A DNA stretch of 64,000 nucleotides. Source: Omnitrophica WOR_2 bacterium GWF2_43_52 (GTDB lineage Bacteria; Omnitrophota; Gorgyraeia; Gygaellales; UBA12090). The notes below the pieces were generated by a model. The model saw only the letters and a program-made list of their open reading frames with translations. It had not been told where the DNA came from and did not search any database. Positions within the stretch are counted from its first letter, which is position 1. The number at the start of each line of letters is the position of its first letter. The DNA lies in assembly GCA_001805445.1 (NCBI GenBank), contig MHGF01000023.1:18859-82858 (forward strand). Reading direction: 5' to 3'. Both the position numbers and the translations under genes were made by a program. Of this stretch, positions 18,948 to 40,457 are shown piece by piece.

Positions 18948-21398
18948 ATGGCATACTCTAAAAAAGACGAGGAAACACTGACGGTTGTTTTTTTTCTGTT
19001 TGTGATTTTTCTTATCTATAACTTCATTTTTGGAGTATCAGGTTTTTTTAAAATCCCTACCATAGTAACCGACGATTTTTTTGTCCTGGAAACCCGGGCT
19101 AAAAAACCTCTCCCTCGGGAAATCAAAGATATTATTATTGTCGCGGTTGATAACGATACCCTAAAACAAGTGGGCCTGCAGTGGCCGTGGAAACGTTCTG
19201 TCTATGCTGACCTGGTTGCGAAGATTCATTCGGGCGGCCCTAAGGCGATTTTTCTGGATTTTGCCTTTATGGGAAAGGCTAATGACGAGTCTTCGGATAT
19301 GATTTTTGCCGAGGCGCTTAAAAAAGCAGGCACGGTGATTTTGGCAGGCTATATTGATGAGCGAGGCGAATATGTGAAACCGCTTGAAATGCTTGCCGCT
19401 TTTTCCGCGGGTGTGGGGTTTGTCAATAAAAAGAATTTCAGGGCGCGCGACGCGCAGGAAGTCTTTCATAAGGATACTGTGTTTGAATATGGAGTGGAAG
19501 TAAAGATTTTAGCTCAGGCCCAAGGGATTCCCCGCTCAGCCATTCGTTACGACGCAAATAACATTGTGCTTTCTAAGAAAATAGCCATTCCGGTTAATGA
19601 GTATGGCGTGCTTCCCATCAATTACGCTGCCACGGTCTCAGACTTTACCACAGTTTCCGCGTATAAGGTTTTGGATTCCAGTATTGATAGGGAGGTATTT
19701 AAGGATAAAATAGTTATGGTTGGCATGACTGCGGATAGCGGACAGGATATTCACGATACCTTATTCGGTAAAATCCCCGGTATATACATTAACGCCAATA
19801 CCCTGCTTATGTTTATTTCGGGCAATTTTGTAAACAGGCTGCCCTATGCCTTTGAGAATAAGGAGCTACTTTTGAGTATTATGGGAGGAAGATTTAAGGA
19901 GGCCTTGCCGGGCCTGTTGAACGTGCTTATTTTGCTTTTGTTTACCTTTGGTATCGGTATGTTCGCGTTTCGTTTTAAGGCGTTGTATTCGGCGTTCTTT
20001 GTTTCAGTGGTTTTATATGGAGTGTCTTTAGGATATGGAGCTTTGCAAATCCGCCATAATTTTCGCATGGATATTTTTAGCCTTTTTTTTCTTAGCGGCA
20101 TCTCATTTATAGGGGTTGAGGCATATAAGTATATTAGTTTACTGATGCGTTCTGAAAAATTAAAAACCTCAGCGATTACCGAGCAGGCAACGGGTATTTT
20201 TACCCAACGCTACTTTCAGCTTTCTATGGAATCGGTTCTTATCAAAGGGGGAATACGGCAAAAAGGTTTTTTCTGTTTCATGAGTATTAATGAATTTTCT
20301 AAGATAACGGCATTATCTCCGCAGTCCGCCAGGGATATCATAAAAGCTCTCTCAGCCATACTGAAGGAATATTGCGGCAAAAAAATCATCCTTGCCCGTT
20401 ATGGGGAGAGCGCGCTTGTTGTGTGTCTGTGGCATAACGACAGAAAAAAAGTGGAAAAGGCATTACGCTTAGCAGTAAAAGAAATTGTCGAGCGTGATTT
20501 CATTGTTGAAAATAATGCCCTGAGGCTTTCCGTCAAAATAGCGGCGGTGGCTTTTCCTCAGGAGCATATAAGGAGTTACGCGGATGTAGTATTGACTTCT
20601 GAATCTATGTTACAACGTATGGGCTCTGACGCGCAGGTTCCTGTTGCCGTTTTTGACCCGAAGAGAGATACCGTCGTCAGGGCTAACGCTTCTTGTGATG
20701 CCGCGAAAATACTTCCTAAGGAGGAATTAGAGTACATAAGCATGGATTTGGAGGCGCGTAATAAAGAGCTGGAAGAAGCGCTCCGGGAGTTAAAGAAGCA
20801 GCAGAAAAAGATTGAAGAGACGTATTTTGAAACTATGCATTCCCTGGTCAAGGCCCTTGAAGAAAAGGATCCTTATACCTCAGGCCATTCGGAAAGGGTG
20901 AGCAGGTATGCCCAGACGCTGGCGAAAGGGTTGTTATTACCCGAGAAGGAAATAGACGCGGTCCAAAAAGCGGCATACCTGCACGATATAGGAAAAATCG
21001 GCCTTCCGGATAGAGTGCTGCACAAGAAGGAACGGCTCAATGATGAAGAGTTCGAATATATTAAGCGCCATCAGGCAGATGGGGCGAGAATATTGGAAGG
21101 CCTGCCCTTTTATAAAGAAATCGTGCCGTATATCCTGTATCATCACGAGCGCTACGACGGTAAAGGTTATCCCCACGGTTTATCCGGGGATATGATTCCC
21201 CGGGGGGCCCAGATTATCAGCATTGCCGATGCCTATGACGCGATGACCACCGGACGAGGGTATAATAATCCGCTCACCGCGCAAGAGGCAATCGCGGAAC
21301 TCAAAAAGTCGTTAGGCCAGCAGTTTCATCCACTCTACGCGGAAACCTTTATCAAGCTTCTGGAAGAGAAGAAGATTCACGCCTTTGATAAAGCCTAA
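18948..21398 (+). CDS. CHASE2 sensor - TM - degenerate GGDEF - HD-GYP c-di-GMP phosphodiesterase
   Basis: The periplasmic CHASE2-like N-domain is flanked by TM helices. The middle domain has the GGDEF fold but RYGESAL in place of GG(D/E)EF. The C-terminal HD-GYP domain has HDIGKIGLPD and HHERYDGKGYPHGL. Confidence 0.8.
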   Translation: MAYSKKDEETLTVVFFLFVIFLIYNFIFGVSGFFKIPTIVTDDFFVLETRAKKPLPREIKDIIIVAVDNDTLKQVGLQWPWKRSVYADLVAKIHSGGPKAIFLDFAFMGKANDESSDMIFAEALKKAGTVILAGYIDERGEYVKPLEMLAAFSAGVGFVNKKNFRARDAQEVFHKDTVFEYGVEVKILAQAQGIPRSAIRYDANNIVLSKKIAIPVNEYGVLPINYAATVSDFTTVSAYKVLDSSIDREVFKDKIVMVGMTADSGQDIHDTLFGKIPGIYINANTLLMFISGNFVNRLPYAFENKELLLSIMGGRFKEALPGLLNVLILLLFTFGIGMFAFRFKALYSAFFVSVVLYGVSLGYGALQIRHNFRMDIFSLFFLSGISFIGVEAYKYISLLMRSEKLKTSAITEQATGIFTQRYFQLSMESVLIKGGIRQKGFFCFMSINEFSKITALSPQSARDIIKALSAILKEYCGKKIILARYGESALVVCLWHNDRKKVEKALRLAVKEIVERDFIVENNALRLSVKIAAVAFPQEHIRSYADVVLTSESMLQRMGSDAQVPVAVFDPKRDTVVRANASCDAAKILPKEELEYISMDLEARNKELEEALRELKKQQKKIEETYFETMHSLVKALEEKDPYTSGHSERVSRYAQTLAKGLLLPEKEIDAVQKAAYLHDIGKIGLPDRVLHKKERLNDEEFEYIKRHQADGARILEGLPFYKEIVPYILYHHERYDGKGYPHGLSGDMIPRGAQIISIADAYDAMTTGRGYNNPLTAQEAIAELKKSLGQQFHPLYAETFIKLLEEKKIHAFDKA

Positions 21399-26058: not shown

Positions 26059-27087
26059 ATGCAAGGTGAAAATCCTCTGAGAGCTATCTTTCATCAGCCT
26101 TCCTGCCGCAGCGGGTTAGATATAGGAAATTACAGCGTTAAGTTCGTTACCATCAAAAAAGCGCCTCTGCGCAAAAAAAGCCTTCTTTCTTTTTCTGCCG
26201 TAACACTTGCCAAGAATGCCTCAGGCCAGAATATACAAGACGCCATCGTACAGGCATCGCAGGGCATGCCTCCGGAGTCAAAAAAAATAAAATTGTCTAT
26301 TTCTGGCCCAAATATCATTGCCCGGTATATCCTTTTGCCGGCGATGAAGGAGTCTGATTTAGCGAAAGCGCTAGAGTTCGAGTTGGAAAAATACATCCCC
26401 TATAAAAAGGAAGAGGCGATTATTAATTATTATATATTAACCCGCCTGCCTAATAACCAGATGGTCGTGTTGTTTGTTGCCGCGGAGCGTAAGGTTGTGC
26501 AGGAACGGATTGATTTGGTTAAAGGCGCTGGCTTGGAGCCGCAGCTTATTACTATCGATGCCCTTGCTTTATGCGAGATTTTTAAAGCTTTGGTCCCAAA
26601 ATATAAAGGGGTGGCAGTTATTTTAGATATCGGATACCGCTTGACCAAGTTGGTAGTCTTAGAAAATAATATCCCCTTTTTCTCCCGGGATATAGAAATC
26701 GGAGAATATGACATTATTCAAATGATTGCCGACAGGATGAATATCTCCTATGTAACAGCAAAAGAACAGGCCTGCGGCGCAGATGAGCATAAGGTGAAGG
26801 AGTTAGCCGAGGCAGCAAAAACCGAGTTGCATACTTTATTGAATGAAATTTCGTTATCTTTTGAATATTGCGAAAGAAATCTGGAAAAAAAGGTGCAGCA
26901 AATCTTCTTATGCGGCGGAGGCTCAAGAATAAAAATCTTATCAGGCTTCTTAGAAGGAATTCCTGATGTTAAAATAAGCTTTCTTGACCTTGCGCAAGGA
27001 TTTAGCGTAGTTTCAGCAGCCAGTTCTCAGGAAATTCATGATTCTGCCTCTTTTCTCTGTGTGGGGGCAGGCTTAGCGCTTAGTTAG
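26059..27087 (+). CDS. pilM: Type IV pilus assembly ATPase-fold protein PilM (actin-like)
   Basis: GLDIGNYSVKFV N-terminus and a C-terminal …LCGGGSRI motif. Confidence 0.8.
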   Translation: MQGENPLRAIFHQPSCRSGLDIGNYSVKFVTIKKAPLRKKSLLSFSAVTLAKNASGQNIQDAIVQASQGMPPESKKIKLSISGPNIIARYILLPAMKESDLAKALEFELEKYIPYKKEEAIINYYILTRLPNNQMVVLFVAAERKVVQERIDLVKGAGLEPQLITIDALALCEIFKALVPKYKGVAVILDIGYRLTKLVVLENNIPFFSRDIEIGEYDIIQMIADRMNISYVTAKEQACGADEHKVKELAEAAKTELHTLLNEISLSFEYCERNLEKKVQQIFLCGGGSRIKILSGFLEGIPDVKISFLDLAQGFSVVSAASSQEIHDSASFLCVGAGLALS

Positions 27088-27429
27088 TGAGCACTGAAAA
27101 GTGGTAACTAATTAGCGGACGTATCAAGCAACCGCGGCCTTAATTTTTAAGACAGTAACAAGAATATCTTCCTTTCTATCATTTTCTTCTTTTCCTATCC
27201 AAAAATGCAGCGCATTGTTTAACCACAGAATAGTCATTCTCTGTAAAATGAGGGATAATACCATTTGATTTTTATCTATTTTGGTGCTATATATATATTT
27301 GTTTTATCAGCCTGCAAGAAGCGAGCTTTAACGCTTCTTACGCGGTAAACTTTGGTTCATTCGTAAATAATGTGGAGCACTTAGCGTAACTGTTTGATAA
27401 TAAAGGGGAATTGCTAAAATCACTAGCAA

Positions 27430-27705
27430 TAGCGAAACTAATAGTTTTTGCAGCGAATGGTTCGACTACGCTCACCATTCGTACTGAGCAAAGTCGAAGT
27501 ACGAATGATGATTTTAGGCAAAAAGTCCGAATAGTTTCGGGAATCCCGATGCTCTCTAAGTATCATCGGAGCAATATCGGGACGACGAGGATGTGTGAGC
27601 CCCGACGAGTCCGGCGGGGCGAGTTCCGCAGTCGCCGAAACTATGAGAGGCTTTTTGACGTGAAAAAATCGTCCTGAGCGAAAAAATTATTAGTTTTGCA
27701 AACCA
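27430..27705 (+). ncRNA. Highly structured ~275-bp intergenic element of unknown identity, bounded by imperfect direct repeats (ACTAATAGTTTTTGCA / ATTATTAGTTTTGCAA)
   Basis: It contains multiple nested stem-loops (CGAATGG…CCATTCG; GTACTGAGCAAAGTCGAAGTAC; CGGGAATCCCGATG…CATCGG; CCCCGACGAGTCCGGCGGGG). The ORF 27411-27677 across it is implausible. I found no other copy in the window. Confidence 0.3.
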
Positions 27706-27763
27706 CTACATCCACAAAATTCACGAAAGAACCTAAACTTTTAACAGGATTATACTGTTAGCA

Positions 27764-30700
27764 ATGGAACCTTCCGAGAATATACAAAGAGCCGCAGAAA
27801 AAGATATCCGTTTCGCCGAACCTACCTTTATTGACCCTTTGACGAGATTATATAACCAATACTATCTTTTCCAGTTTCTTCCAGAGGAGATTAAAAAAGC
27901 GAATTTAGGGAATTATTCCTTGGCAGTCTTTATGATTGACTTGGACGGTTTTAAATATGTCAATGATACCTATGGCCACCTCTGCGGGGATGATGTTTTA
28001 AAGCAGATGGCAGAGATCCTTAAAAAATCAGTGCGCCAGACCGATATGGTGATTCGCTACGCGGGCGATGAATTTACCATTCTTTTGCCGGGCGTTGATT
28101 TGGCGCGGGTTGAAAAGTTGTCTGGGCAGCTTATAGAAAATGTCGCGAAAAACCCTTTTAAGGGATTAGAGGGAGAAAGCCTGAATCTGACCATAAGCAT
28201 GGGTTTTGCTATGTGCCCTGAAGATGGTACCGAGGTAGACAGGCTGATAGAATTGGCGGATAAGGCGCTCTACTTATCGAAACAGAGAGGGAAAAACCGT
28301 GTTTCTCAGGCAAAAGAAGTAACCCAGGAGAAAGTAAGTTCCCTTATCGCGTTGGATTCATTTCCTTGCCCCGCGTTTATCGATAGGCGCAAGGAAATAG
28401 ACACGCTCGCAAATATCTTTGATACGAAAGTATCGCAGGATAATTCATTACAGATGGCATTGATTTCCGGTGACGCGGGAATCGGCAAGTCTCGGCTGCT
28501 GACAGAATTAAATAATTATGTCCATGATAAGGCGGTTGTCATTGGCTGCCATGCTTCTCTTACGCACAAGGGGAATCCTTATTTTCTCTTTGCCCAGGGG
28601 ATCTCAAATTATATTCAGAAGATCGGCCCGCGTAATCCTCAGCTTGCTAATCTTCTCGCTAATGTCCCTATTGAAGAAGTCACAGAGCTCAGCCGAATCA
28701 TCCCCTTATTAGCTCCTCTGGTTGGAAGTTCGCAGGAGGTATCAGGAGAGGATAAGAAAGCGCGATTTTTACTCTTTAAGGGATTGCTTGACTTTTTTAT
28801 AGAGCTTACGCGCCATTCGGCGGTTGTATTTTCGTTTGATGACCTGCAATGGGCAGATAAGGCAAGTATCGAGCTGTTGCGCTACCTTTCCAAACAGGAA
28901 AAAAACAGGCGCATATTTATCGTATGCAGCCTTTCAGGGGATAGCTATGGAGAAGCAGTCAGGGATAATTATTTCAGGCCTTGGCAGGAAGAATTGAGCC
29001 TTATGGATAACGTTGCCGTAGTAAAGCTATCAACCCTTTCGTCAGAAGACGCGTCGAAAATGGTTGATGCTATTTTTCCCGGGACAGGCAGGGATGGGGA
29101 ATTTTGTAAGTCATTGTACGCGGCCACAAAGGGAAACCCTTCTTTTATTGAAGAAGTGCTGAAGTCGCTTGTGGAGAATTCGGTGATTCTGTATCAGGAT
29201 AACCGCTGGATGATAAAAAAAGAACTGTATAACCAGGGAACGTCATTTTCGCTGGAGGAGATTATCAAAAAACGCTTGAAAAGCCTGGATGAAGAGACCA
29301 AGGAGATGATTGTCCAGGCGGCAGTCATCGGGGAAGATTTTTCGCTTGATTTTTTAAGGAAGATCGATAATCGTGATGAAGGGTTTATGCTTGAGCTTTT
29401 AAACCGGGCAAAGAAAATGCGTTTGATAGATGAGACCGAACAAAAAGGCAAATACGGCTTTATCAATAAAAATATACAGCATATGCTCTATAACGAATTA
29501 AATGAAGAAGAGCGCGCACAGCTTCATCATAAGATTGCCAATGTTCTCGGCCAAGAGCATAAAGACAATTTATCCCAAGTGGCAGGAGAAATGGCATTCC
29601 ATTATACCCAGGCGCCCGGACAGGAGAAATCGGATGAGTTTCGTAGGACGCTTCTGGAAAAAGCCTCGGAACTTTTCAGCCCGGTCGAGATTGTCGAATA
29701 CCTCGATAACCTTTCAAAAAAAGCTCCTCTGGCAGAAGAAAAGGTGCTTCCCCTTACTGATGAAGCGCTTATTCATGAGGCAGTGAGGTTTGTTCGAATG
29801 CTTCAGAACGCCAGAAAGGTTTTTCATTTGTATCCTCCGGGAGCGATGAGAATCAACGCGGTGCAGGAGGCATTTGGCCTGGTAGAGCATATACTGAAAA
29901 GCACCGCGATGGTTGTGATAAGCCAGTCAGAAAGAAGGCTGCTTCTTAACGGAGAAGCAGTGATTATTAAAGAGGTTGATCAGGCAAGCGTTGAGAGTTT
30001 TTTGCAGCTTTTGTTGGAATATAATATCCAGTCACTATCCTTTAAGAACGGCATTATTCCCGAGGAATTGAATATTTTTCTCGATTACGCCAGTGCTCCT
30101 TCGGAAAAGATTAAGGAAAAAGGCGGCTGGGGGGCAATTTTCAATAAGGAAACCATGAAATCCCTCAAGGTTAATGACGCGCGTTTCGCGCAACCTGCGG
30201 GGCAGGAAAAAGAATCGGGAAAGAAAGATAAGCTCAAAGATATGATGCTCATGGAATTTTTCTTGGGTAAAGCAGGTATGGGAGGGATAGATAAAAAAAC
30301 GGTTATTAGTACAATCGAGAACGAACCGCAGAGTTTTGCCCGCACGCTTCAGGAAGCAGCCAAAGAATCGCTCAAGGAGGGTAAGACCAAGGATGAGGCA
30401 AAGGCGGTTACCGAAAGCATTGAAAAGATACATTCGCAGATATTCGGTAAGCAGCTGCAAAAAGCCTCTGACCCTAAGGCATTGGCCCGGATTATTATAG
30501 AGCTTGAACCGGGATTAAGAACCCGGGTTATACGGCTTCATTTGAAGGAGCAATCTTTGAAGACACCCGATACAAAAGACGATATGCTGTACGTGCTTCC
30601 TGAGGCGATTATCGTTGAGGCGCTTATCGTGGAATATAAGGAGTCCCAGGGAAATCTTATTGTCGTTAAGGCTTGCTTTGACAAAGCCTTTGGCAATGAC

Positions 30701-31843
30701 GCGGCAAGAAAACAGGCGGCATTAGCTTTATTAGAAGTATCGCTGGGTGAGCTTCAGGCGGAGAAAAGCGCCGCGCCTTTTATCGGCGGGCAGTTTCCCT
30801 GGGAGAATGTTTCACTTCCCGCGCGCCTGGAGACTCTTGCTAGCTTGCCGGATAACTATTACCCTGCTGAATTAGGAAAAATAAAATTATTATTGGAAGA
30901 GTTAACCTCGCATCAGAAGCCGGTGGAGTTGGAAAAATTTATATCGCACCTGCTTGCGAAAGTAGGCAAGTTTGACCCCTTGATCCGTAAGGACATTATT
31001 ATGGCGCTCTCTGGCGTAGTGAAAACATCGTTATGTAACGATACTATTGACAGCCTTAAAATGCAGGATAGGTTAGGAATTATATGGAAACTTTTAAAGG
31101 CTGAATCACAGCCAAGAGAATTCCGTGTTTTACTGGATATCCTTCGGGATGCCTGCAGGGAACTTGCTTCTCATTTGCAATTACTGGGTGATGTGGTTCT
31201 TGAAAGAGACAAGCCTGAAGTGAAGAAATATGTCGCGTTTATACGCCAGCTTTGTTTTTCCCTTGGAGAGGCAATGCAAAAAGAAAAAAACAGTGATTCG
31301 GAAATATGCAAGCTTGCCGCCGGATTTATAAAAGATATAGTGTATGGCAGGCTTTTAGAGGTTTTCGCCTATGCTGTTGTCAGTGCTTCTGGAGAAGAAA
31401 GAGCGAAGGTAAAGATACTCTTTCCTTTTATTTACGAGAAACTAGCGGATGCTGTGATCGCTTTTCATGCCTCCAAGGATATAAAGTTTGGAGATTCGTT
31501 TTCAGAGTACGCGATAATCAAGGGAAGCGCTGATGTTTTGCTGGAACTTGGGGAGCCGGCATTGCATAGGCTAAAGCAGAAATTATCCCAGGCACGCGAT
31601 GATATATCCGTATCACTCATTGAGTTAATCAAACACCTTAATAAAGAGGAATTAATAGAGCCGTTATCTTCACTGATTCACCACAAAAATCAGGTAATAC
31701 GCTATAAGGTGATTGTAGCTTTAGCCGCTATCGGAACCCAGAAGGCGCACGAAGTGCTTGTTGGGGCGCTCAAGGGAGAGAAAGATAAAAGGATGCGGTC
31801 GTTACTTAAAGACGAAGTGCGTAAGTTAAAGGCGAAAAGATAA
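27764..31843 (+). CDS. 1359-aa protein with GGDEF (AGDEF variant, intact RxxD I-site), AAA_16/STAND NTPase, a helical domain and C-terminal HEAT/ARM-like repeats
   Basis: The GGDEF domain spans residues ~15-185 (DLDGFKYVNDTYGH…RQTDMVIRYAGDEFTILLPG). Walker A is GDAGIGKSRLLTEL and Walker B is VVFSFDDLQWAD. The C-terminal ~300 aa hold PBS-lyase/HEAT-like repeats (…VIRYKVIVALAAIGTQKAHEVLVGAL). Confidence 0.8.
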   Translation: MEPSENIQRAAEKDIRFAEPTFIDPLTRLYNQYYLFQFLPEEIKKANLGNYSLAVFMIDLDGFKYVNDTYGHLCGDDVLKQMAEILKKSVRQTDMVIRYAGDEFTILLPGVDLARVEKLSGQLIENVAKNPFKGLEGESLNLTISMGFAMCPEDGTEVDRLIELADKALYLSKQRGKNRVSQAKEVTQEKVSSLIALDSFPCPAFIDRRKEIDTLANIFDTKVSQDNSLQMALISGDAGIGKSRLLTELNNYVHDKAVVIGCHASLTHKGNPYFLFAQGISNYIQKIGPRNPQLANLLANVPIEEVTELSRIIPLLAPLVGSSQEVSGEDKKARFLLFKGLLDFFIELTRHSAVVFSFDDLQWADKASIELLRYLSKQEKNRRIFIVCSLSGDSYGEAVRDNYFRPWQEELSLMDNVAVVKLSTLSSEDASKMVDAIFPGTGRDGEFCKSLYAATKGNPSFIEEVLKSLVENSVILYQDNRWMIKKELYNQGTSFSLEEIIKKRLKSLDEETKEMIVQAAVIGEDFSLDFLRKIDNRDEGFMLELLNRAKKMRLIDETEQKGKYGFINKNIQHMLYNELNEEERAQLHHKIANVLGQEHKDNLSQVAGEMAFHYTQAPGQEKSDEFRRTLLEKASELFSPVEIVEYLDNLSKKAPLAEEKVLPLTDEALIHEAVRFVRMLQNARKVFHLYPPGAMRINAVQEAFGLVEHILKSTAMVVISQSERRLLLNGEAVIIKEVDQASVESFLQLLLEYNIQSLSFKNGIIPEELNIFLDYASAPSEKIKEKGGWGAIFNKETMKSLKVNDARFAQPAGQEKESGKKDKLKDMMLMEFFLGKAGMGGIDKKTVISTIENEPQSFARTLQEAAKESLKEGKTKDEAKAVTESIEKIHSQIFGKQLQKASDPKALARIIIELEPGLRTRVIRLHLKEQSLKTPDTKDDMLYVLPEAIIVEALIVEYKESQGNLIVVKACFDKAFGNDAARKQAALALLEVSLGELQAEKSAAPFIGGQFPWENVSLPARLETLASLPDNYYPAELGKIKLLLEELTSHQKPVELEKFISHLLAKVGKFDPLIRKDIIMALSGVVKTSLCNDTIDSLKMQDRLGIIWKLLKAESQPREFRVLLDILRDACRELASHLQLLGDVVLERDKPEVKKYVAFIRQLCFSLGEAMQKEKNSDSEICKLAAGFIKDIVYGRLLEVFAYAVVSASGEERAKVKILFPFIYEKLADAVIAFHASKDIKFGDSFSEYAIIKGSADVLLELGEPALHRLKQKLSQARDDISVSLIELIKHLNKEELIEPLSSLIHHKNQVIRYKVIVALAAIGTQKAHEVLVGALKGEKDKRMRSLLKDEVRKLKAKR

Positions 31844-31846
31844 ACA

Positions 31847-32302
31847 ATGTCACCGCTCAGGCGTGTTAAGGCAAAAATCGGGGATTTGCTGCTACAGGAT
31901 GGCCTCATTACCGAGGCGCAGCTGCAGGAGGCCATTTCTTTGCAGAAGACTAATGCTAAAGACAAGACCTTGGGGCAAATTTTGTTAGAATTCGGGTATG
32001 TCAAGAAAGATGATTTATATACCGTTTTGGCTGTTCAAAGCGGCTATCCTTATCTTGCTATTCATCATTGCGTTGTCAATCCCAAGGTCTTAGCGCTTTT
32101 ACCGGAATCAGTAGTAAGAAAACATCAGGCGTTTCCTATTGATAAAATCCATGATATTTTTACCGTCGCCATGGTAAATCCTCTGGATAGGGCTGCTCTT
32201 GAGCAGATTGAAGATCTTGTTCAAAGCAGGGTGAGGGTTTTTTTAACAACGCCCGCGGATTTGGAAAAGGCGTTGAACCGCTACTATAGCGTAAAAACGT
32301 AG
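31847..32302 (+). CDS. Free-standing MshEN / T2SSE_N (PilB N1) domain protein; candidate c-di-GMP receptor
   Basis: KIGDLLLQDGLITEAQLQEAISLQ matches the 24-residue MshEN c-di-GMP-binding motif RLGxx(L/V/I)(L/V/I)xxG(L/V/I)(L/V/I)xxxx(L/V/I)xxx(L/V/I/F)xxQ. The rest is a GspE_N fold. It is in frame with the downstream ATPase but separated from it by TAG and TAA stops. Confidence 0.7.
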   Translation: MSPLRRVKAKIGDLLLQDGLITEAQLQEAISLQKTNAKDKTLGQILLEFGYVKKDDLYTVLAVQSGYPYLAIHHCVVNPKVLALLPESVVRKHQAFPIDKIHDIFTVAMVNPLDRAALEQIEDLVQSRVRVFLTTPADLEKALNRYYSVKT

Positions 32303-32359
32303 GGGGACGACATTTGTTTTTCGTCTCCTGCTTTATTATCATAACCTATAGATAAGCAC

Positions 32360-33592
32360 ATGCCGCCATCTGAAAAAAACGAAAAGCCGATACAAGAGCC
32401 AGCCATCCCCTCGGGTGTCATTGATGATAATCCTGTTGTGCTGGCGGTCAATAAGATTCTGGTTGAGGGAATAGAGAAAGGTTCAAGCGACATTTTGATC
32501 GAACCGTTAGATAATGAAGTGCAGGTGCGCTACCGGATTGACGGAATACTTCACAGGATGCATCTTTTTCCTAAAAGCTTTCAGGATGGAATCGTAGGCC
32601 GTATAAAGGTAATGTCCGGGCTGGATATCAGTGAGCACAGGCTTCCTCAGGACGGAAGGCTGAAAATGACGTATAGCTCTAAGGAGGTAGATTTACGGGT
32701 TTCTGTTCTGCCCGCGAGCCTGGGTGAAAAAGTAGTATTGAGAGTATTGGATAAATCAAGGACCGTGCTTGATATCAGTACCTTAGGATTTGACCAGCGC
32801 ACGCTTGAGCTGTTAAAGGTTAATTTAGTTAAGCCGGTAGGCATGATTTTGGTTTGTGGAGCAACAGGTTCCGGAAAGACGACAACACTCTATTCCGCGG
32901 TACAATACATTGATTCTATCGATAAGAATATCGTTACCGTTGAAGACCCCGTAGAATACCAATTGTACGGGATCAATCAAGTAGCGGTCTCTGAAGATAT
33001 AGGGCTGAATTTCGCCTCTGCCTTGCGCTCCATACTGCGCCAGGACCCCGATGTGGTGCTTGTGGGAGAAATAAGGGATTTTGAAGCTGCCGACATCGCT
33101 ATTAAGGCATCGTTAACCGGCCACCTGCTTTTAAGCACGCTCCACACCATTTCCGCGACCGGGTCTACGGTGCGTTTGATGAATATGGGCATAGAGCCGT
33201 TTCTCATTGCCTCGTCGTGCCTTTTAGTGGTAGCGCAGGTTTTAGCGCGCCTCTTGTGCCCTAAGTGTAAAGAGCCCTATCATCCGTCAAAAGAAGTAGC
33301 GGATGTTCTTCGGGCTTCTCATCTTAGCCTGGATGAACAAACAGTGTTGTATCGGAAGAAAGGCTGCAACGAGTGCAATCATGCCGGGTTTAAAGGAAGG
33401 ACGGTCGTTGCTGAAAGTTTAGAGATTACCGCTAGTATCAGAGATTTGATTATCGCGCGCGCGTCGGAACAAGATATCAGGAATGCCGCCTATAAAGAGG
33501 GGATGGTAAGTATCAGCGAGAATGGCTTTCAATTAGTATTGGAAGGGCTTACCACGATGGATGAGATTTTACGCGTAACCTCTCTTGAATGA
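32360..33592 (+). CDS. PilB/GspE-family secretion ATPase lacking the N1 domain (N2 domain, RecA-like ATPase and tetracysteine Zn motif)
   Basis: Walker A GATGSGKTTTLY, Asp and His boxes, and CPKC…CNEC. Confidence 0.85.
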   Translation: MPPSEKNEKPIQEPAIPSGVIDDNPVVLAVNKILVEGIEKGSSDILIEPLDNEVQVRYRIDGILHRMHLFPKSFQDGIVGRIKVMSGLDISEHRLPQDGRLKMTYSSKEVDLRVSVLPASLGEKVVLRVLDKSRTVLDISTLGFDQRTLELLKVNLVKPVGMILVCGATGSGKTTTLYSAVQYIDSIDKNIVTVEDPVEYQLYGINQVAVSEDIGLNFASALRSILRQDPDVVLVGEIRDFEAADIAIKASLTGHLLLSTLHTISATGSTVRLMNMGIEPFLIASSCLLVVAQVLARLLCPKCKEPYHPSKEVADVLRASHLSLDEQTVLYRKKGCNECNHAGFKGRTVVAESLEITASIRDLIIARASEQDIRNAAYKEGMVSISENGFQLVLEGLTTMDEILRVTSLE

Positions 33593-35285
33593 GGTAAAAC
33601 GTTACATCGCTATGGATACGAAGAATCAAAATAACTATTCCGGTGATAAAATAAAGGGGGATACTCCTTTGTCAGCCTCTGTCTCCTTGCGGCTTGAGGC
33701 TGATTCGCTGGAGGAACTGCAGCTAAAGAAAATACTTTCTTTTTGCGAAGACCTGGATATCCCGGTCATTAACCTAGCCAACTATAAAATTCCTCCTGAA
33801 TTGCTGCGCTTAATTTCCGAAGATTTGGCAAGGACGTACAAAATTATTCCTGTGGCCAAATATGGGAATATGCTTACCGTCGCTACCGCGGATCCGTTTG
33901 ATATTGTGGCTATAGATAATTTTAAGACGATAACAAAATTAGACATCCGTCTGGTCTTAAGCGCTCCCGCGCAGATAGCCAAGGCCTTAAATGACTACTA
34001 TAGCGCGCTCAATTTAGAAAAGGCTATGGATGAGAATCAAGTCCTGGTAGAAGAAACGCTTAAGGTTGAGGCAGTTGCCAATGACGCGATAAATATTGAA
34101 GAGATCGCGGAATTAAGCCAGCAGGTACAGATAGTTGAGATGGTTAATAGTATTTTAACCGATGGCCTGAAGCAGCGTGCCTCAGATATCCACATTGAGC
34201 CCTATGCCCAGAAGTTCCGGATACGGTATCGTATCGATGGTATTTTACAGGAGAGAAAGCTTGCCATAGAGAAGCAGTATGAATACGCGGTGATTGCCCG
34301 GCTTAAGATCATGTCACAACTGGATATTACGCAGCGCAGGCTTCCTCAAGACGGAAGGATTTCGATTAAAGTAGCCGATAAAGAAATTGACCTTCGGGTA
34401 TCGGTCTTGCCGCTGGCTACCGGTGAAAAGATAGTCATGAGAATCCTGGAAAAAGGCAATGTGCAGGTAAACCTGGAAAAATTAGGGTTTTCTGCTACCG
34501 CGCAAGAAGCGTTTAGAAGGGTTATTCACAGGCCTAACGGCATGATCCTCGTTACCGGCCCTACCGGAAGCGGAAAGTCTACCACACTCTACGCGATATT
34601 AAGCCTTTTAAATGTTCCGGAAAAAAACTTGATTACTGTCGAAGATCCTGTAGAATATCAAATGAAAGGGATAACGCAGGTTCATGTGCGTTCAGATATC
34701 GGTTTGACCTTTGCCAGCGTTTTAAGGGCGATTTTGAGGCAGACCCCTGATGTTGTTATGGTGGGTGAAATCCGCGATTTTGAAACCGTGGATATAGCAA
34801 TTAAAGCAGCGCTCACCGGCCACCTTATCTTAAGCACCCTGCATACCAATGACGCCCCCAGCACCATTGTGCGCCTTATCAATATAGGGGTAGAGCCGTT
34901 TTTAATTGCCTCAACGGTTAATCTTATTGCCGCGCAGAGGCTTTGCCGTAAGATCTGCCAGCAATGCAAAGAATCCTATACCTTGCCTCCCATGAACCTG
35001 AAAGGATTACCCGCTGAATATAAGGATAAAAAAGCGATTTTTTTCCGGGGCAAGGGTTGTCCGCGGTGTAACAATACCGGTTATTACGGACGGGTGGCAA
35101 TAATCGAGGCGCTGGTGATGGATGATGTTGTACGCCAGATGATTACGGATAAGGTGCCGATACCGAATATTGCCGAGTACGCCCGTAAGCATGGGATGAA
35201 GACCTTGCGGGAAGATGCCATCGATAAATGTTTGTTAGGCGAGATTTCTTTAGAGGAAGCTTTACGGGTAACCCCTGAAGGCTAA
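33585..35285 (+). CDS. pilB: Type IV pilus assembly ATPase PilB (full length, with N1 domain)
   Basis: GspE_N domain, Walker A GPTGSGKSTTLY, and CQQC…CPRC. 566 aa. Confidence 0.9.
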   Translation: MNEVKRYIAMDTKNQNNYSGDKIKGDTPLSASVSLRLEADSLEELQLKKILSFCEDLDIPVINLANYKIPPELLRLISEDLARTYKIIPVAKYGNMLTVATADPFDIVAIDNFKTITKLDIRLVLSAPAQIAKALNDYYSALNLEKAMDENQVLVEETLKVEAVANDAINIEEIAELSQQVQIVEMVNSILTDGLKQRASDIHIEPYAQKFRIRYRIDGILQERKLAIEKQYEYAVIARLKIMSQLDITQRRLPQDGRISIKVADKEIDLRVSVLPLATGEKIVMRILEKGNVQVNLEKLGFSATAQEAFRRVIHRPNGMILVTGPTGSGKSTTLYAILSLLNVPEKNLITVEDPVEYQMKGITQVHVRSDIGLTFASVLRAILRQTPDVVMVGEIRDFETVDIAIKAALTGHLILSTLHTNDAPSTIVRLINIGVEPFLIASTVNLIAAQRLCRKICQQCKESYTLPPMNLKGLPAEYKDKKAIFFRGKGCPRCNNTGYYGRVAIIEALVMDDVVRQMITDKVPIPNIAEYARKHGMKTLREDAIDKCLLGEISLEEALRVTPEG

Positions 35286-35438: not shown

Positions 35439-36647
35439 ATGTCACTTTTTAGCTATACGGCAACCGATTATAGCGGGCAGAAGATAACCGGAAGAATGGA
35501 GGCAAAAGACAGGGCTGTCCTTATCAATAATTTGAGGAAGAATCAGTTGGTTATCATCGCGATAAGGGAGCTCAAAGAATCGGAGGTCCGCGCGCTTAAG
35601 AAAAGCGGCAGGGTAAAGCTGGATGACTTGACGGTATGCTTCAGGCAGTTAGCCGCCTTGGTGAAAGCGGGCATTCCGCTGGTAAAAAGCTTGAATATCC
35701 TTTTTGCCCAGGCCGAGAGCCCTTTTTTGAAAGAAATTCTTTCCTCATTACTAGCTAAAATAGAATCCGGCACAAGCCTTTCCGAGGCAATGAGCAGTTA
35801 TCCCCAGGTATTTTTATCTATGCATATCAATATGATTAGGGCAGGTGAAGTTAGCGGTGCGCTGGAAACGATTTTAGAGAGGCTTGCTCTTTACTTAGAG
35901 TCATCAAGTAAACTTAACCGCAAGGTGAAATCCGCGATGATGTATCCTGCCGTGGTTATCAGTGTCGCGCTTATGATTACCACGGGTATATTTATCTTCG
36001 TCATCCCTCAGTTCCAGGGCATGTTTGCCTCGTTAGGGGCAAATTTACCGCTTCCTACGCAGATTATGATTAACTTAAGCAATTTTCTTCGGCAGTACTT
36101 TGTTGCCCTTATTATTTGTGGTATACTTCTATGGGTAGCTTTACAAAAGGTTATGGCGAAGCCACAGGTTAGGGTAAGATGGGACAGGATAAAGCTGGAT
36201 TTACCTGTGGCGGGAAAACTAATCCGTAAGATTGTCGTCGCCCGTTTCGCGCGGACAACCTCCACCTTGCTTAAAAGCGGAGTGACTATTCTTTCGGCCC
36301 TCGATATCGGCAGTAAGACCACGGAAAATAGGACTATTGAAATAACCTTGGCGAAAGTAATCAACAGAGTCAGTAAGGGAGAGAGAATTGGGGAGTCATT
36401 GGCAGAAAATAAGGTCTTTTCGCCCATGGTAGTCAGTCTTATCGCGGTAGGTGAGGAAACCGGAGACCTTGGCTCTATGCTGGATAAGATTGCCAGTTTT
36501 TATGAAGATGAGGTTGATACCGCCATTAGCGGGCTTACCTCTTTGCTTGAGCCGTTTATCATTGTCTTTTTAGGAGGCATGATCGGCACTATTGTGCTGT
36601 CGTTATTTTTGCCTATTTTTAAAATTACCCAATATGTGGGAAGGTAA
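35439..36647 (+). CDS. pilC: Type IV pilus inner-membrane platform protein PilC (GspF family)
   Basis: Two GspF repeats, three TM segments, about 400 aa. Confidence 0.9.
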   Translation: MSLFSYTATDYSGQKITGRMEAKDRAVLINNLRKNQLVIIAIRELKESEVRALKKSGRVKLDDLTVCFRQLAALVKAGIPLVKSLNILFAQAESPFLKEILSSLLAKIESGTSLSEAMSSYPQVFLSMHINMIRAGEVSGALETILERLALYLESSSKLNRKVKSAMMYPAVVISVALMITTGIFIFVIPQFQGMFASLGANLPLPTQIMINLSNFLRQYFVALIICGILLWVALQKVMAKPQVRVRWDRIKLDLPVAGKLIRKIVVARFARTTSTLLKSGVTILSALDIGSKTTENRTIEITLAKVINRVSKGERIGESLAENKVFSPMVVSLIAVGEETGDLGSMLDKIASFYEDEVDTAISGLTSLLEPFIIVFLGGMIGTIVLSLFLPIFKITQYVGR

Positions 36648-37152: not shown

Positions 37153-37725
37153 ATGAAAAAAGGATACAGCCTTTTGGAAGTCTTAATCGTGGCAGGCTTG
37201 ATTGTTGTGGTAACAGCTTTGCTATTGAATATGTCAAATACTTTTAATTTAAGCTGGGATGTCCAAAATGTCAAGATGGAATTAGACCAGCAGGCACGCC
37301 GCGGCATAGACGAGATGATAAGAGATTTATATGAGGCTACGTCTACTTCTGGTCAAACCACGGTTACTGCTAATAGCGTTAATTTCAGAGTCCCGGTAGT
37401 GGTTGATGACAATTTTCCTAATCCTCCGGATATTTATGACGCCAGCGGCAATATTTATTGGGGGGCAGACGGAGTAGTCGGCAATAATATTAGCTACCGC
37501 GTCAATTCAGGCCAGTTAGTAAGAGAAGTGATAAGCGGAACGAGTATAATCAGCAGCCGTGTCTACGCTAATAATGTTACAAACTTAGCTTTCACCCAGC
37601 AGCCTCCTAGCCCGCAGTTTCCCAGAGCTATAGCGATAAATATTACTTGCCAGAAGCCGGTGCGCAGGGGGTCTCTTACCCTGGCTAATTCCACTATGCA
37701 GTCACAGGTTACTCTGAGAAATTAA
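37153..37725 (+). CDS. Pseudopilin / minor pilin (MKKGYSLLEVLIVAGLIVVV)
   Basis: Canonical G at -1, Y at +1, and E at +5. Confidence 0.7.
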   Translation: MKKGYSLLEVLIVAGLIVVVTALLLNMSNTFNLSWDVQNVKMELDQQARRGIDEMIRDLYEATSTSGQTTVTANSVNFRVPVVVDDNFPNPPDIYDASGNIYWGADGVVGNNISYRVNSGQLVREVISGTSIISSRVYANNVTNLAFTQQPPSPQFPRAIAINITCQKPVRRGSLTLANSTMQSQVTLRN

Positions 37726-37936
37726 CCCATGGCAACCTTGAAAAGTTACACACTCTATGATATACTATAAGTAGTAATTTAGAAAGAGACCTATTGTTAA
37801 AGGCAAATCCGCCGTAAGGCGGAGACGCAAAGCCAATGAGCCCGCCAACGATATGTGGCGAGGTAGTCAGGTTGCCAAAGGGTAATAAGTTTTAAGAATC
37901 CTGCAGGCATTCTGCGGGATTTTTTTATGGAGTATT

Positions 37937-37985
37937 CAATGCCAGGCATAAACAAAGGTTTTTTCATCTGACTATGCCTGGCATT
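37937..37985. repeat. Back-to-back ATGCCAGGCAT terminal repeats (CAATGCCAGGCATAAACAAA-GGTTTT-TTCATCTGACTATGCCTGGCATTG): apparent solo or empty carrier element
   Basis: Both end types seen at 17693-17872 are here directly adjacent with nothing between them. Confidence 0.55.
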
Positions 37986-38012
37986 GAAAAAGCTTTGACA
38001 AGGAGGATAAAA

Positions 38013-40457
38013 ATGGATTCCTACAAAAATAAAAATAACAAAGGTGTGGCATTAATTATGGCTTTGGGGGTTTCCAGTGTTTTGCTTACCTTGAGTATGG
38101 CCTATGTGGGCGGGGCTATACAGGAGAGTAATCTCAGCCAGCGTTATCAGGATTCTATGACTGCGCTTTATGAGGCAGAGCGGGGGTTAGCCTATGCCTT
38201 CGGTGAGGCGCAAAATGCGGGGTATGACTGGTTTACCCATGATGTAGATAGCAATGATGCCAATAGGAATGGCGATACCACGGAATTCATAAGGCCAGCC
38301 AACTCTCCTGGAGTAACATTAGGAGATGTTAGGGATAATCAGGGAATAGTAATCAATAGTGCAGGTAATTACCAGATACCCTTAGGAGGGGCTTCTCTTA
38401 TTCAGGTGCGCAGTTACACCAATCCTAATGATACAAACCAGATGTTTCTTATGGCTCAAGCTACCGTAGGCTCTGCCAGCCGTACCTTAAAGACCAAGAT
38501 TATCCGCAGGCCGCTATTCAAATATTTTTATTACTATCCTGGGTGGAAATATTTTGAAGGCAGTGATTTTGACGGAGAAGGAATAGGCGGTGTCTATGTC
38601 AAAGATGGTATAACCTTACGCAATGTAAATTTTAAAAACATAACTGAATTAGCCACCGGTCCTAACGGATATATCGTAGCGGCAAGTGATCAATATACCT
38701 CTCCTAAAGGAGTAGATTGGTTCATAGGGGGGATTAACGGAAAAGCGCCTTTACCCTCTAAGTATGACAGCAGTGGGCAACTTGTTTGGGATGACGGATA
38801 TAACGGCAATAACCCTTGGGGGCAGTGGAGGTGGCCGCCTCAGTACTCCTTTCCGTGGGACTGGAGGCGCGTCTATGACCATTTTTTTAATCCAGGAACG
38901 GTTAACAAGGTTACTCTCCCTACTAAGGATGATGCAGTGAATAATTTATGGCCAGAGTGGCAGTGGAATAAATATCCGCAGAGTGATAATTCCGAAGTAC
39001 CGGTACAGTTTTGTAACCCTTGCGGGGAGCGCGATATTAACGGAGATGGAGTGAAGGATACAGTCTATGCCACTCCCCAGTATTGGGCGGCGTTTTCAGA
39101 AGCAAGATGCGGTGCGGGGAAAACAAATAACGAGTGCGGCCTCATTGACCCGGATTTCTGGAGGGATAAGATTTATGACCGCCAGACTCCGACCGAAATG
39201 GTAAGGTATCTTCATACCAAAAAGCAGGCAGGGGCATGGCAGGGGTGGGTTAATAGCGCTACCATTCCTTTAGGACAAGACCAGTATAACGAAGGCCAGC
39301 CTTTGTCTTCAGTGGTAAAAGAGGGACAAACCGGCGGCTATGATATTGAAATGCCTAAGATTGATCAAAACTATGCCGGGCTGGCGAAAAAGGACGGCCT
39401 CTATATCGGTGAGGATGGGGTGTATCTTAACGGAAGCCCGGACTCTTTGCCATCCTGCATAAGAGATAATGTAGAATTTTTTAATACGCTCCGTCCGCAG
39501 GATAGAAACGGGGATGGCACCCTTGACCCGGAAAATGTCTTAGAGATTAATATTGAGCAATGCCGGACGACAAGGGAGGTGCCGAATAACGGCATTATCT
39601 ATGTTGCCCACAAGAATCTCCGGTTAACCAATGCCAAACAAATGCCGGATAATGGCCTGACAGTGGCCTCTCCTTATAATATCTATATAAAGGGTAATTA
39701 TAACTATGATCCTTCCAATGACCCGGATACGAATGATCGCAACTGGCGCCCGTCTGCGGTTATCAGCAATAGTTATGTCTATATTCTTTCCGGCAACTTT
39801 ACCGACCCTCAGGCTCTGCCTGATTACGTCGTTCCCCGTGAATATCCGTATGAAACAACCAGGATTGCTAGTAACATTGATTATAATAATGCAACCCAAA
39901 GAGCGACTTTGCAAAATAAGGTACAAACTTATTTTGGGTTACCTAATTTTACTATGGCAGGAGTGAACAGCAAAACTGGGCTGGAGAGTAAGATTCGCAG
40001 CCAGCATGCAAGCGAATGTAGCAATACCATGCCTAATATAGCCAGCCCTACTACGGTAAGAAGCGCTATTGTGTCTCCCAAAGATATGACTGGGGTAAGC
40101 TGGGATGAAAACAAGTTTTATCAGCTGGAGCGCTGGCCTACCAATCCGGTGCTAAGAGGCGCGTTTATTCTTTTGGGAGAAAGCTGGGTAAAGGATAACG
40201 AGGGTAATGATATACAGGATATCCCTATTTATGGTTATGACTGGCAAGGCGTTCCTATTAATACCCCCCGGAGTGTACGCAGAGGCACAGGCGGCAGTGC
40301 GACTATTGACAAGGGAGAGGATGTAATGTGGATCAATACGCCGGGCTCCAAGTTAAAATACGAATACTTGTTTGACACTGATACTATGCCTCCCGGGAAT
40401 CTTGCCGGTGGCACGGAAGCCGGCTGGCAGGAGGTTAGCGATTTCAATCATTCCTAG
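38013..40457 (+). CDS. Giant (~815 aa) PilX_N-domain minor-pilin-like protein, paralog 1; candidate pilus-tip adhesin
   Basis: The N-terminus NKGVALIMALGVSSVLLTLSMAYVGGAIQESNLSQRYQDSMTALYEAERG matches the PilX N-terminal domain. The body is rich in N/Y/W/G/D. The C-terminus …AGWQEVSDFNHS is shared with paralog 2. The ORF track starts at 37974. Confidence 0.65.
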   Translation: MDSYKNKNNKGVALIMALGVSSVLLTLSMAYVGGAIQESNLSQRYQDSMTALYEAERGLAYAFGEAQNAGYDWFTHDVDSNDANRNGDTTEFIRPANSPGVTLGDVRDNQGIVINSAGNYQIPLGGASLIQVRSYTNPNDTNQMFLMAQATVGSASRTLKTKIIRRPLFKYFYYYPGWKYFEGSDFDGEGIGGVYVKDGITLRNVNFKNITELATGPNGYIVAASDQYTSPKGVDWFIGGINGKAPLPSKYDSSGQLVWDDGYNGNNPWGQWRWPPQYSFPWDWRRVYDHFFNPGTVNKVTLPTKDDAVNNLWPEWQWNKYPQSDNSEVPVQFCNPCGERDINGDGVKDTVYATPQYWAAFSEARCGAGKTNNECGLIDPDFWRDKIYDRQTPTEMVRYLHTKKQAGAWQGWVNSATIPLGQDQYNEGQPLSSVVKEGQTGGYDIEMPKIDQNYAGLAKKDGLYIGEDGVYLNGSPDSLPSCIRDNVEFFNTLRPQDRNGDGTLDPENVLEINIEQCRTTREVPNNGIIYVAHKNLRLTNAKQMPDNGLTVASPYNIYIKGNYNYDPSNDPDTNDRNWRPSAVISNSYVYILSGNFTDPQALPDYVVPREYPYETTRIASNIDYNNATQRATLQNKVQTYFGLPNFTMAGVNSKTGLESKIRSQHASECSNTMPNIASPTTVRSAIVSPKDMTGVSWDENKFYQLERWPTNPVLRGAFILLGESWVKDNEGNDIQDIPIYGYDWQGVPINTPRSVRRGTGGSATIDKGEDVMWINTPGSKLKYEYLFDTDTMPPGNLAGGTEAGWQEVSDFNHS

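Follow-up and report, generated by a model that had tools for sequence, protein, structure and literature searches.

The stretch of DNA examined here comprises 64,000 nucleotides (nt) from Omnitrophica WOR_2 bacterium GWF2_43_52 (assembly GCA_001805445.1, contig MHGF01000023.1, positions 18,859 to 82,858 of the forward strand); it is referred to below as the window, and coordinates are those of the window, on its plus strand. Within it lies a type IV pilus gene cluster in which an open reading frame (ORF) at 31847..32302, encoding a free-standing MshEN protein of 151 amino acids (aa) and ending in a TAG codon at 32300-32302, precedes an ORF at 32360..33592 for a 410-aa ATPase of the PilB/GspE family, which has N2 and C-terminal domains, the latter with a tetracysteine (Cys4) zinc site, and is without the N1 domain. 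A second PilB paralogue, of 566 aa, is encoded immediately afterwards at 33585..35285. The 57-nt intergenic spacer (32303..32359) between the first two ORFs holds a second stop codon, TAA 32342-32344, which lies in the reading frame of the 151-aa ORF, as does the ATG at 32360 (an offset of 513 nt) that starts the 410-aa ORF, the end of which is at 33592. The original prediction had pointed to both stop codons, which the sequence confirms, and had taken the pair for one PilB in which the N1 domain, a putative receptor for c-di-GMP (cyclic dimeric guanosine monophosphate), was cut from its motor. On the comparative evidence set out below, the two ORFs are real, separately translated genes fixed in an Omnitrophota clade, and the reading that is favoured here, with moderate confidence, is that of two fixed genes, one for an MshEN protein predicted to be the c-di-GMP receptor of the operon and the other for an ATPase whose N1 domain has been deleted in the course of evolution.

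The claim that the first ORF encodes an MshEN domain only was borne out by two family profiles and by alignment to a known structure. The NCBIfam model NF053729 (MshE-related c-di-GMP-binding domain) matches residues 10-64 with 59.9 bits against a cutoff of 38, and the Pfam model PF05157 (T2SSE_N1) matches residues 66-148 with 68.5 bits, above its cutoff, so that the protein consists of a four-helix MshEN_N bundle and a T2SSE_N1 subdomain, with no further domain. Residues 3-147 are aligned by phmmer to residues 2-145 of V. cholerae MshEN (5HTL; E = 5.8e-16), and alignments to the N-termini of Geobacter PilB and Thermus PilF were also obtained. The AlphaFold2 model, for which 28 homologues were used (predicted local distance difference test score 87), has helices at residues 11-17, 23-35, 42-48 and 54-64, followed by an alpha/beta subdomain. 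When this model was compared with the PDB by Foldseek, 9g1w, 5htl and 8pdk were among the best matches, with template modelling (TM) scores of 0.57-0.67, the best matches being PilF GSPII-A, MshEN with c-di-GMP, the N-terminal part of Xanthomonas PilB and PilF GSPII-B. Indeed, the model, the structural search, phmmer and both family profiles all return the two-subdomain MshEN fold.

The 410-aa protein, in turn, has an intact motor. PF00437 covers residues 22-405 with 424.7 bits and is the sole domain-level Pfam match, a match to FtsK_SpoIIIE falling below the cutoff of that family. The equivalog models for GspE (TIGR02533) and PilB (TIGR02538) align only from model positions 104 and 174, respectively, and score beneath their cutoffs (514.6 versus 630.25, and 509.6 versus 675.65). 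The Walker A motif GATGSGKTT, the Walker B motif DPDVVLVGEIRD, the His box TGHLLLSTLH and the Asp box are all intact, and the Cys4 zinc site is located at residues 300-339; the N2 domain, the C-terminal domain and the motifs that make up a PilB/GspE ATPase core are accordingly present and are common to canonical PilB and GspE, from which the protein differs in lacking the whole of N1, no PF05157 match being obtained anywhere in the polypeptide. Identity to the core of the neighbouring PilB is 48%. Assignment to the PilT/PilU retraction ATPases was considered and rejected, given a TIGR01420 score of 163.1 bits against a cutoff of 319.1 and the presence of the Cys4 site. The N-terminal tails of the N1-less ATPases are short, charged and variable, and look like linker remnants. 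The original prediction had also held that the second PilB lacks the motif for binding c-di-GMP, and this is supported by its domain composition: PF05157 matches residues 57-140 and PF00437 residues 179-561, so that the T2SSE_N1 part is present, and there is neither an NF053729 match nor a four-helix bundle. Alignment to MshE shows that the bundle is missing from the second PilB in 7/7 orthologues from operons arranged as in the window (small MshEN gene, N1-less ATPase, PilB), an arrangement designated type A.

The type A arrangement extends well beyond this contig. Independent ENA, JGI and NCBI assemblies together contribute at least 24 contigs that carry the identical 151-aa sequence, always with the same neighbours, and a word-indexed search of 5.8 billion proteins yielded 28 homologues that are 40-99% identical to the 151-aa protein and all 141-162 aa long. 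The family of the 410-aa ATPase comprises more than 60 clusters (formed at 90% identity), 57-100% identical to the window protein and in many cases labelled Omnitrophota; all are 384-430 aa in length, with PF00437 as the only domain, and two (384 and 388 aa) are labelled partial. The order of genes for a cyclase (about 1360 aa), MshEN (about 150 aa), the N1-less ATPase (397-430 aa), PilB (536-569 aa) and PilC is conserved, being seen in full in eight of the loci compared (L010, L013, L016-L018, L020, L095 and L100) and in part in three that end at contig edges (L009, L019 and L022), and is held even where the small protein is only 42-71% identical to that of the window. Inspection of the orthologous loci for a fused or split state, as the original prediction had proposed, showed every close relative to be split, and no fused orthologue was found above about 40% identity. 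In a profile scan of one genome per GTDB species, from which the best 80 of at least 542 matches were taken as the locus sample, the free-standing state occurred only in Omnitrophota-type metagenome-assembled genomes (MAGs), with taxon labels taken from the MAG records; the matches from other phyla in this sample (at most 41% identity) were mostly the N-termini of ordinary PilBs, and a few lay within ORFs of other lengths.

These data bear directly on the supposition that the locus represents one PilB, whether broken by a sequencing or assembly error, interrupted by a recent nonsense mutation, or restored to full length by programmed readthrough or recoding. Such ideas draw on the fact that the two ORFs share one frame with only a TAG and a TAA within the 57 nt between them. 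However, only 3/11 lineages, namely those of the window, L009 and L017, have a common frame, in line with the one in three expected by chance; the two genes are mostly in different frames among lineages, and the same-frame arrangement is therefore regarded as coincidence. Sequencing error is ruled out by the independent assemblies that carry the identical split and by its deep conservation, and a pseudogene or nonsense-split gene is incompatible with two parts that are both intact and conserved down to about 42% identity, with catalytic motifs preserved in the ATPase, no fused close relative, and an occurrence that is not confined to one lineage; a broken or dead gene is in consequence extremely improbable. 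Readthrough would require two different stop codons to be passed, across a spacer that is only 2-25 nt long in the orthologous loci and has no significant RNA structure in the window (z = -0.54; no terminator-like site was called there either), and is viewed as no less remote. What the original prediction described correctly is a receptor-type domain made as a separate polypeptide beside an intact N1-less ATPase, a state that is conserved; its description of one PilB cut by two stops does not hold, since the two-gene state is fixed across lineages. A contrasting case is provided by locus L011 (Logan SRR27925880), in which several ORFs take the place of each of the genes for the cyclase, the two ATPases and PilC, with an identical MshEN of 152 aa intact; these breaks look like frameshifts from assembly or read errors, and show what a truly error-split locus resembles.

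A second type of operon, designated type B, was found in loci L012, L023-L026, L036, L038, L043, L098 and L099, where a free-standing MshEN gene encoding 142-165 aa is followed by two full-length PilBs. The nearest full-length relatives of the 410-aa ATPase are the first-position PilBs (PilB1) of this type, which stand behind an MshEN gene of 149-150 aa, and in their cores the type B PilB1 proteins share 46-52% identity with the 410-aa protein, against 42-47% with the 566-aa PilB. In neighbour-joining trees, which were computed from short alignments, the ATPase cores of the N1-less proteins form a clade (100% bootstrap) beside type B PilB1, and the second-position PilBs (PilB2) of types A and B join at 91%. 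In the corresponding tree for N1 domains, free-standing proteins of type A (100%) fall together with those of type B, apart from the N1 domains of PilB1, with a bootstrap value of 47%. Because in type B operons it precedes a full-length PilB1, the small MshEN gene is probably older than the loss of N1 from PilB1. The most economical history is one in which a free-standing MshEN gene already stood before two pilB genes, after which PilB1 of type A lost its N1 domain and PilB2 of type A lost its helix bundle. Direct fission of the downstream gene as the origin of the small gene is disfavoured by the coexistence in type B of the small gene and a full-length PilB1, tree support for the order of events being weak; for the same reason, the small gene is taken to be more than simply the N1 domain detached from this very ATPase. 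Two of the type B loci have a further small MshEN gene before pilC, such that paired MshEN genes flank the two pilBs (L026, 3096-3545 and 6989-7420; L043, 3783-4280 and 7742-8170), and these second copies form a distinct subclade in the N1 tree.

The residues of the predicted binding site were next compared among 36 members of the type A family, with numbering according to V. cholerae MshE. The consensus used was RLGxx(L/V/I)(L/V/I)xxG(L/V/I)(L/V/I)xxxxLxxxLxxQ, in combination with its published widening of position 1 to R/K/L. Motif I of the window protein, KIGDLLLQDGLITEAQLQEAISLQ (residues 10-33; 31874..31945), which the original prediction had fitted to the 24-residue c-di-GMP-binding motif, does satisfy the relaxed motif of Wang et al. 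2016 at all constrained positions, with K at position 1, as the extended consensus allows, and I in place of L at positions 2 and 21. Motif II, TLGQILLEFGYVKKDDLYTVLAVQ (residues 41-64; 31967..32038), departs from the relaxed motif only at its first residue, a T, which is outside both [RKPN] and R/K/L; Gly3, the hydrophobic positions and the terminal Gln are kept. Across the family the contact glycines are nearly invariant (G11 in 34/36 proteins, G40 in 36/36), as are Q61 (35/36) and the Leu triads (L25 in 34/36, L29 in 33/36, L39 in 34/36, L54 in 32/36 and L58 in 35/36); the position of Q32 is occupied by Q in 27/36 and K in 9/36, and that of L10 by I in 31/36 and L in 3/36. At the position of R9 there is K in 24/36, including the window protein, R in 5/36 and E in 5/36, and the residue aligned with R38 varies (10 L, 6 P, 5 T and 4 R among the 36). 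The concern that the contact residues might not be conserved is borne out only in part, inasmuch as the Gly and Gln residues are kept and the first position of motif I is K or R in 29/36; it stands for the Arg of motif II, which is variable, and for the spacing of the motifs, which is considered below.

The departure at the Arg positions is softened by published mutants and by PilF domains that bind with first residues other than Arg. In MshE, affinity falls more than 10-fold when hydrophobic residues are mutated and binding is lost altogether with G11L, and changes at Arg9, Asp12 or Gln32 shift affinity by about fivefold at most. In Thermus PilF, GSPII-B has K167 and L196 natively at the first positions and binds c-di-GMP with a dissociation constant (KD) of 6 nM, and GSPII-C, with P335 at the first position, still binds; similarly, the type A family has mostly K in motif I, and L, P, T or R in motif II. 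The PilF domains differ from the window protein in being arranged in tandem and fused to the ATPase, and their spacer is not of 7 residues. A different picture is presented by the N1 domains of the PilBs encoded beside the small gene: in type B PilB1, G11 is replaced in 8/8, G40 is replaced in 6/8 and Q61 is absent in 8/8, and in type B PilB2, G11 is replaced in 5/5. Since the N1 domains of the PilBs are degenerate, truncated or without the bundle, the free-standing protein is, as judged from these residues, the sole product with a binding-type site in every operon examined. Taken as a whole, the residues present suggest that the 151-aa protein probably does bind c-di-GMP.

The genes for c-di-GMP metabolism to which the original prediction had referred are indeed there. 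A GGDEF protein of 1359 aa with STAND (AAA_16) and HEAT parts, identified by Pfam and NCBIfam matches, is encoded at 27764..31843, with 3 nt between its stop codon and the MshEN start codon, and in every type A locus the small MshEN gene is immediately preceded by a GGDEF gene of this STAND/HEAT type. The cyclase has AGDEF in place of GGDEF at the A-site, and a canonical RxxD I-site 5 residues upstream, both invariant in the 9/9 orthologues checked (the window protein and those of L010, L013, L016-L020 and L022). The cyclases near the MshEN gene of type B loci differ in architecture from that of type A: L099 has a HAMP-GAF-GGDEF gene immediately upstream, and L098 has one at a distance of one gene, with a PilT-like gene in between; of the other GGDEF proteins, that of L024 is encoded immediately upstream and that of L023 on the far side of a PilT-like gene. 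Among loci in which the upstream gene was visible, most of either type have a cyclase gene next to the MshEN gene. In L099, the pilB genes are followed by genes for REC-GGDEF, REC-HD-GYP and STAND-type GGDEF proteins. In the window, a protein with CHASE2, a weak GGDEF match and an HD-GYP-type (HD_5) domain, a probable c-di-GMP phosphodiesterase, is encoded at 18948..21398, about 10 kb upstream of the MshEN gene and within the same pilus cluster. This cluster further includes PilM (26059..27087; PF11104), the platform protein PilC (35439..36647; two copies of PF00482), pseudopilins, PilO and the secretin.

The small protein is best read, from its motifs and gene context, as a c-di-GMP receptor that acts in trans on the motors of pilus extension. 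In the following scheme we infer that the protein binds the ligand, which partner it contacts and in which direction it acts; the integrity of the genes, their conservation, the domains, the motif and the linkage are as described above. The upstream cyclase, with its AGDEF A-site, RxxD I-site and a sensor part made up of STAND and HEAT, would make c-di-GMP locally, and the small MshEN protein would bind it through two Leu triads, backbone amides of the Gly residues and the Gln residues. The liganded protein would then act in trans on the pilus motor, licensing pilus extension, perhaps by docking of its T2SSE_N1 subdomain, for which the N1-less ATPase, the paralogous PilB and the PilM/PilC platform are candidate sites. 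Docking on the N1-less ATPase would reconstitute an MshE-like motor; docking on the platform would be analogous to the binding of GspL by the N1 domain of GspE. Removal of the signal would fall to the CHASE2/HD-GYP enzyme. Since the small protein accompanies full-length PilBs with degenerate N1 sites, its role is more likely a general one, that of a sensor for the operon, than one confined to making up for the truncated motor. A more specific version, in which one free-standing MshEN, loaded by a co-encoded and possibly co-localised cyclase, serves both PilB paralogues in trans, the one without N1 and the one without the sensor bundle, is put forward tentatively, as a possibility that falls somewhat short of probable.

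Several observations weigh against a c-di-GMP receptor encoded beside a motor that has lost its N1 domain. The spacer between the two motifs is 7 residues in 36/36 type A proteins, not the 5 residues expected of a c-di-GMP-binding MshEN domain, in which the two motifs make up a 53-residue unit, and seen in 15/16 type B free-standing proteins, and no tested precedent for a 7-residue spacer was found in the literature searched. The T at position 1 of motif II in the window protein is a further point, in that a comparable S39 in the non-binding GSPII-A domain of PilF was judged harmful; moreover, binding was still absent from GSPII-A when the perfect consensus had been restored, which indicates that the motif is not sufficient. 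The bootstrap values for the order of events are weak (the clade that unites the free-standing proteins has 47%, and the grouping B1A+B1B 21%), the AGDEF of the cyclase is a non-canonical A-site, and the small gene is found also beside full-length PilBs, so that it need not complete an N1-less ATPase. With regard to the A-site, the AGDEF cyclase VCA0965 of V. cholerae is active.

The first three of these points would also fit a structural adaptor of the N1 type that docks on PilM/PilC or on the ATPases without binding c-di-GMP, for instance one that selects, independently of nucleotide, which PilB paralogue engages the platform. GSPII-A of PilF is just such a near-consensus, MshEN-like domain that fails to bind, motif II of the window protein is without its Arg, and the N1 subdomain of type II secretion systems binds the PilM-like GspL, 2bh1 and 4pht being weak Foldseek matches of the model. 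An adaptor of this kind would not, however, be expected to keep the Gly, Gln and Leu contact positions over deep divergence while they are lost from the N1 domains of the neighbouring PilBs, and neither the NF053729 match above cutoff nor the recurrence of a cyclase gene directly upstream is accounted for; it is considered rather unlikely. The recurrent adjacency of cyclase and MshEN, which involves two different cyclase architectures and in the window a gap of a mere 3 nt, could instead mean that the small protein works mainly with the upstream cyclase, by taking up its product, giving feedback or buffering c-di-GMP, without regulating the motor directly. Myxococcus xanthus FrgA, listed as MshEN-UNK-HEAT, resembles an MshEN-HEAT fusion, the likeness being one of listed architecture only. 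Yet in L012 and L098 the gene upstream of MshEN is a PilT-like gene and not a cyclase, and the PilB genes always come directly after the MshEN gene; a service confined to the cyclase is held to be distinctly improbable. A receptor acting in trans on the extension motors remains the favoured reading.

Among characterised systems, V. cholerae MshEN (5HTL; Wang et al. 2016, PMC5013675) is the closest: it has the same two-subdomain fold over a full-length alignment and two tandem 24-residue motifs with the Gly, Leu-triad and Gln positions kept, and MshE belongs likewise to a type IV pilus extension system. There, however, the domain is covalently joined to the ATPase as its N-terminus; the window encodes it as a 151-aa protein of its own, in which R9 is replaced by K, R38 by T and the 5-residue spacer by one of 7 residues. 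The same authors described fusions of MshEN to ATPases, glycosyltransferases, REC and other domains, and two MshEN-only architectures, represented by P. aeruginosa PA3740 (MshEN_N with a diverged T2SSE_N1) and Cyanothece cce_1044 ((MshEN_N)2), which resemble the window protein in being small and without an output domain. PA3740 has an identified LxxxLxxQ c-di-GMP-binding motif and has been linked to swarming; by comparison, the window protein has a canonical T2SSE_N1 as its C-terminal subdomain and its gene is placed between a cyclase gene and two pilB genes. In the literature searched, neither PA3740 nor cce_1044, which were compared by description, is mentioned as lying in a pilB operon or beside an N1-less ATPase. 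An input of c-di-GMP to PilB in trans is known also from the PilZ-FimX-PilB system of Xanthomonas and Pseudomonas (7LKM-7LKO; PMC8389850, PMC11656802), where FimX serves as receptor through its EAL domain and the PilZ adaptor binds the N1 domain of PilB; in the window, by contrast, it is a homologue of N1/MshEN that forms the separate protein, and N1 is wholly missing from one motor. The literature searched describes no conserved operon with a canonical MshEN/N1 module as a separate gene, and no such gene between a cyclase gene and pilBs with N1 missing or degenerate. A full-library profile search recovered, among its best 150 matches, 17 single-domain clusters and 32 tandem proteins composed of MshEN only, counts that are upper bounds (at least one of the single-domain proteins, P0148, is a contig-end fragment), and MshEN-only proteins, single or tandem, appear to be common in metagenomes. 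Many of the metagenomic proteins numbered P0029-P0177 consist only of 2-6 tandem MshEN modules, and others have up to 7 modules together with regions of more than 1000 aa without an assigned domain.

The role of the N1/MshEN domain of PilB in catalysis and pilus extension is described as poorly understood in a recent review (PMC11656802). The lineage examined here offers a naturally separate N1 module and an intact N1-less motor, both under selection and next to a probable source of the signal, and permits tests that are ambiguous with truncated fusions, namely of the action of N1 in trans, of c-di-GMP control of binding as opposed to catalysis, and of the partner. If the proposed scheme is correct, N1/MshEN can work as a detachable regulatory subunit, c-di-GMP sensing has been shifted from the motor to a small subunit, and a natural system is available for the effect of N1 on the hexamer and on the PilM/PilC platform. 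We know of no MshEN-only protein for which the mechanism has been worked out, and a defined operon context for such proteins is added by the present locus. Many Omnitrophota are regarded as nanobacteria that depend on a host and make use of pili to that end, and the findings bear on the regulation of pili in this phylum.

Beyond the pseudopilin genes, a c-di-GMP-I-GGC variant riboswitch aptamer (Rfam RF03167) was located at 37793..37880, with a score of 64.7 bits against a gathering score of 59 and the full model matched. It is situated between a pseudopilin gene (37153-37725) and an 827-aa ORF (37974-40457); neither the product of this ORF nor that of the next, of 803 aa, has a Pfam match, and the two may be pilus-associated proteins under riboswitch control. 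Between pilM and the GGDEF-STAND gene, a gap of 676 nt (27088-27763) gave no Rfam match at E ≤ 1; it is without a long ORF, and a consensus scan places some promoter-like sites in it at 27155-27259. Elsewhere in the window, a 714-aa ORF at 3881-6025, on the plus strand, encodes an ammonium transporter (PF00909) fused to HisKA and HATPase_c, and has the appearance of a transporter-sensor fusion with no relation to the pilus locus.

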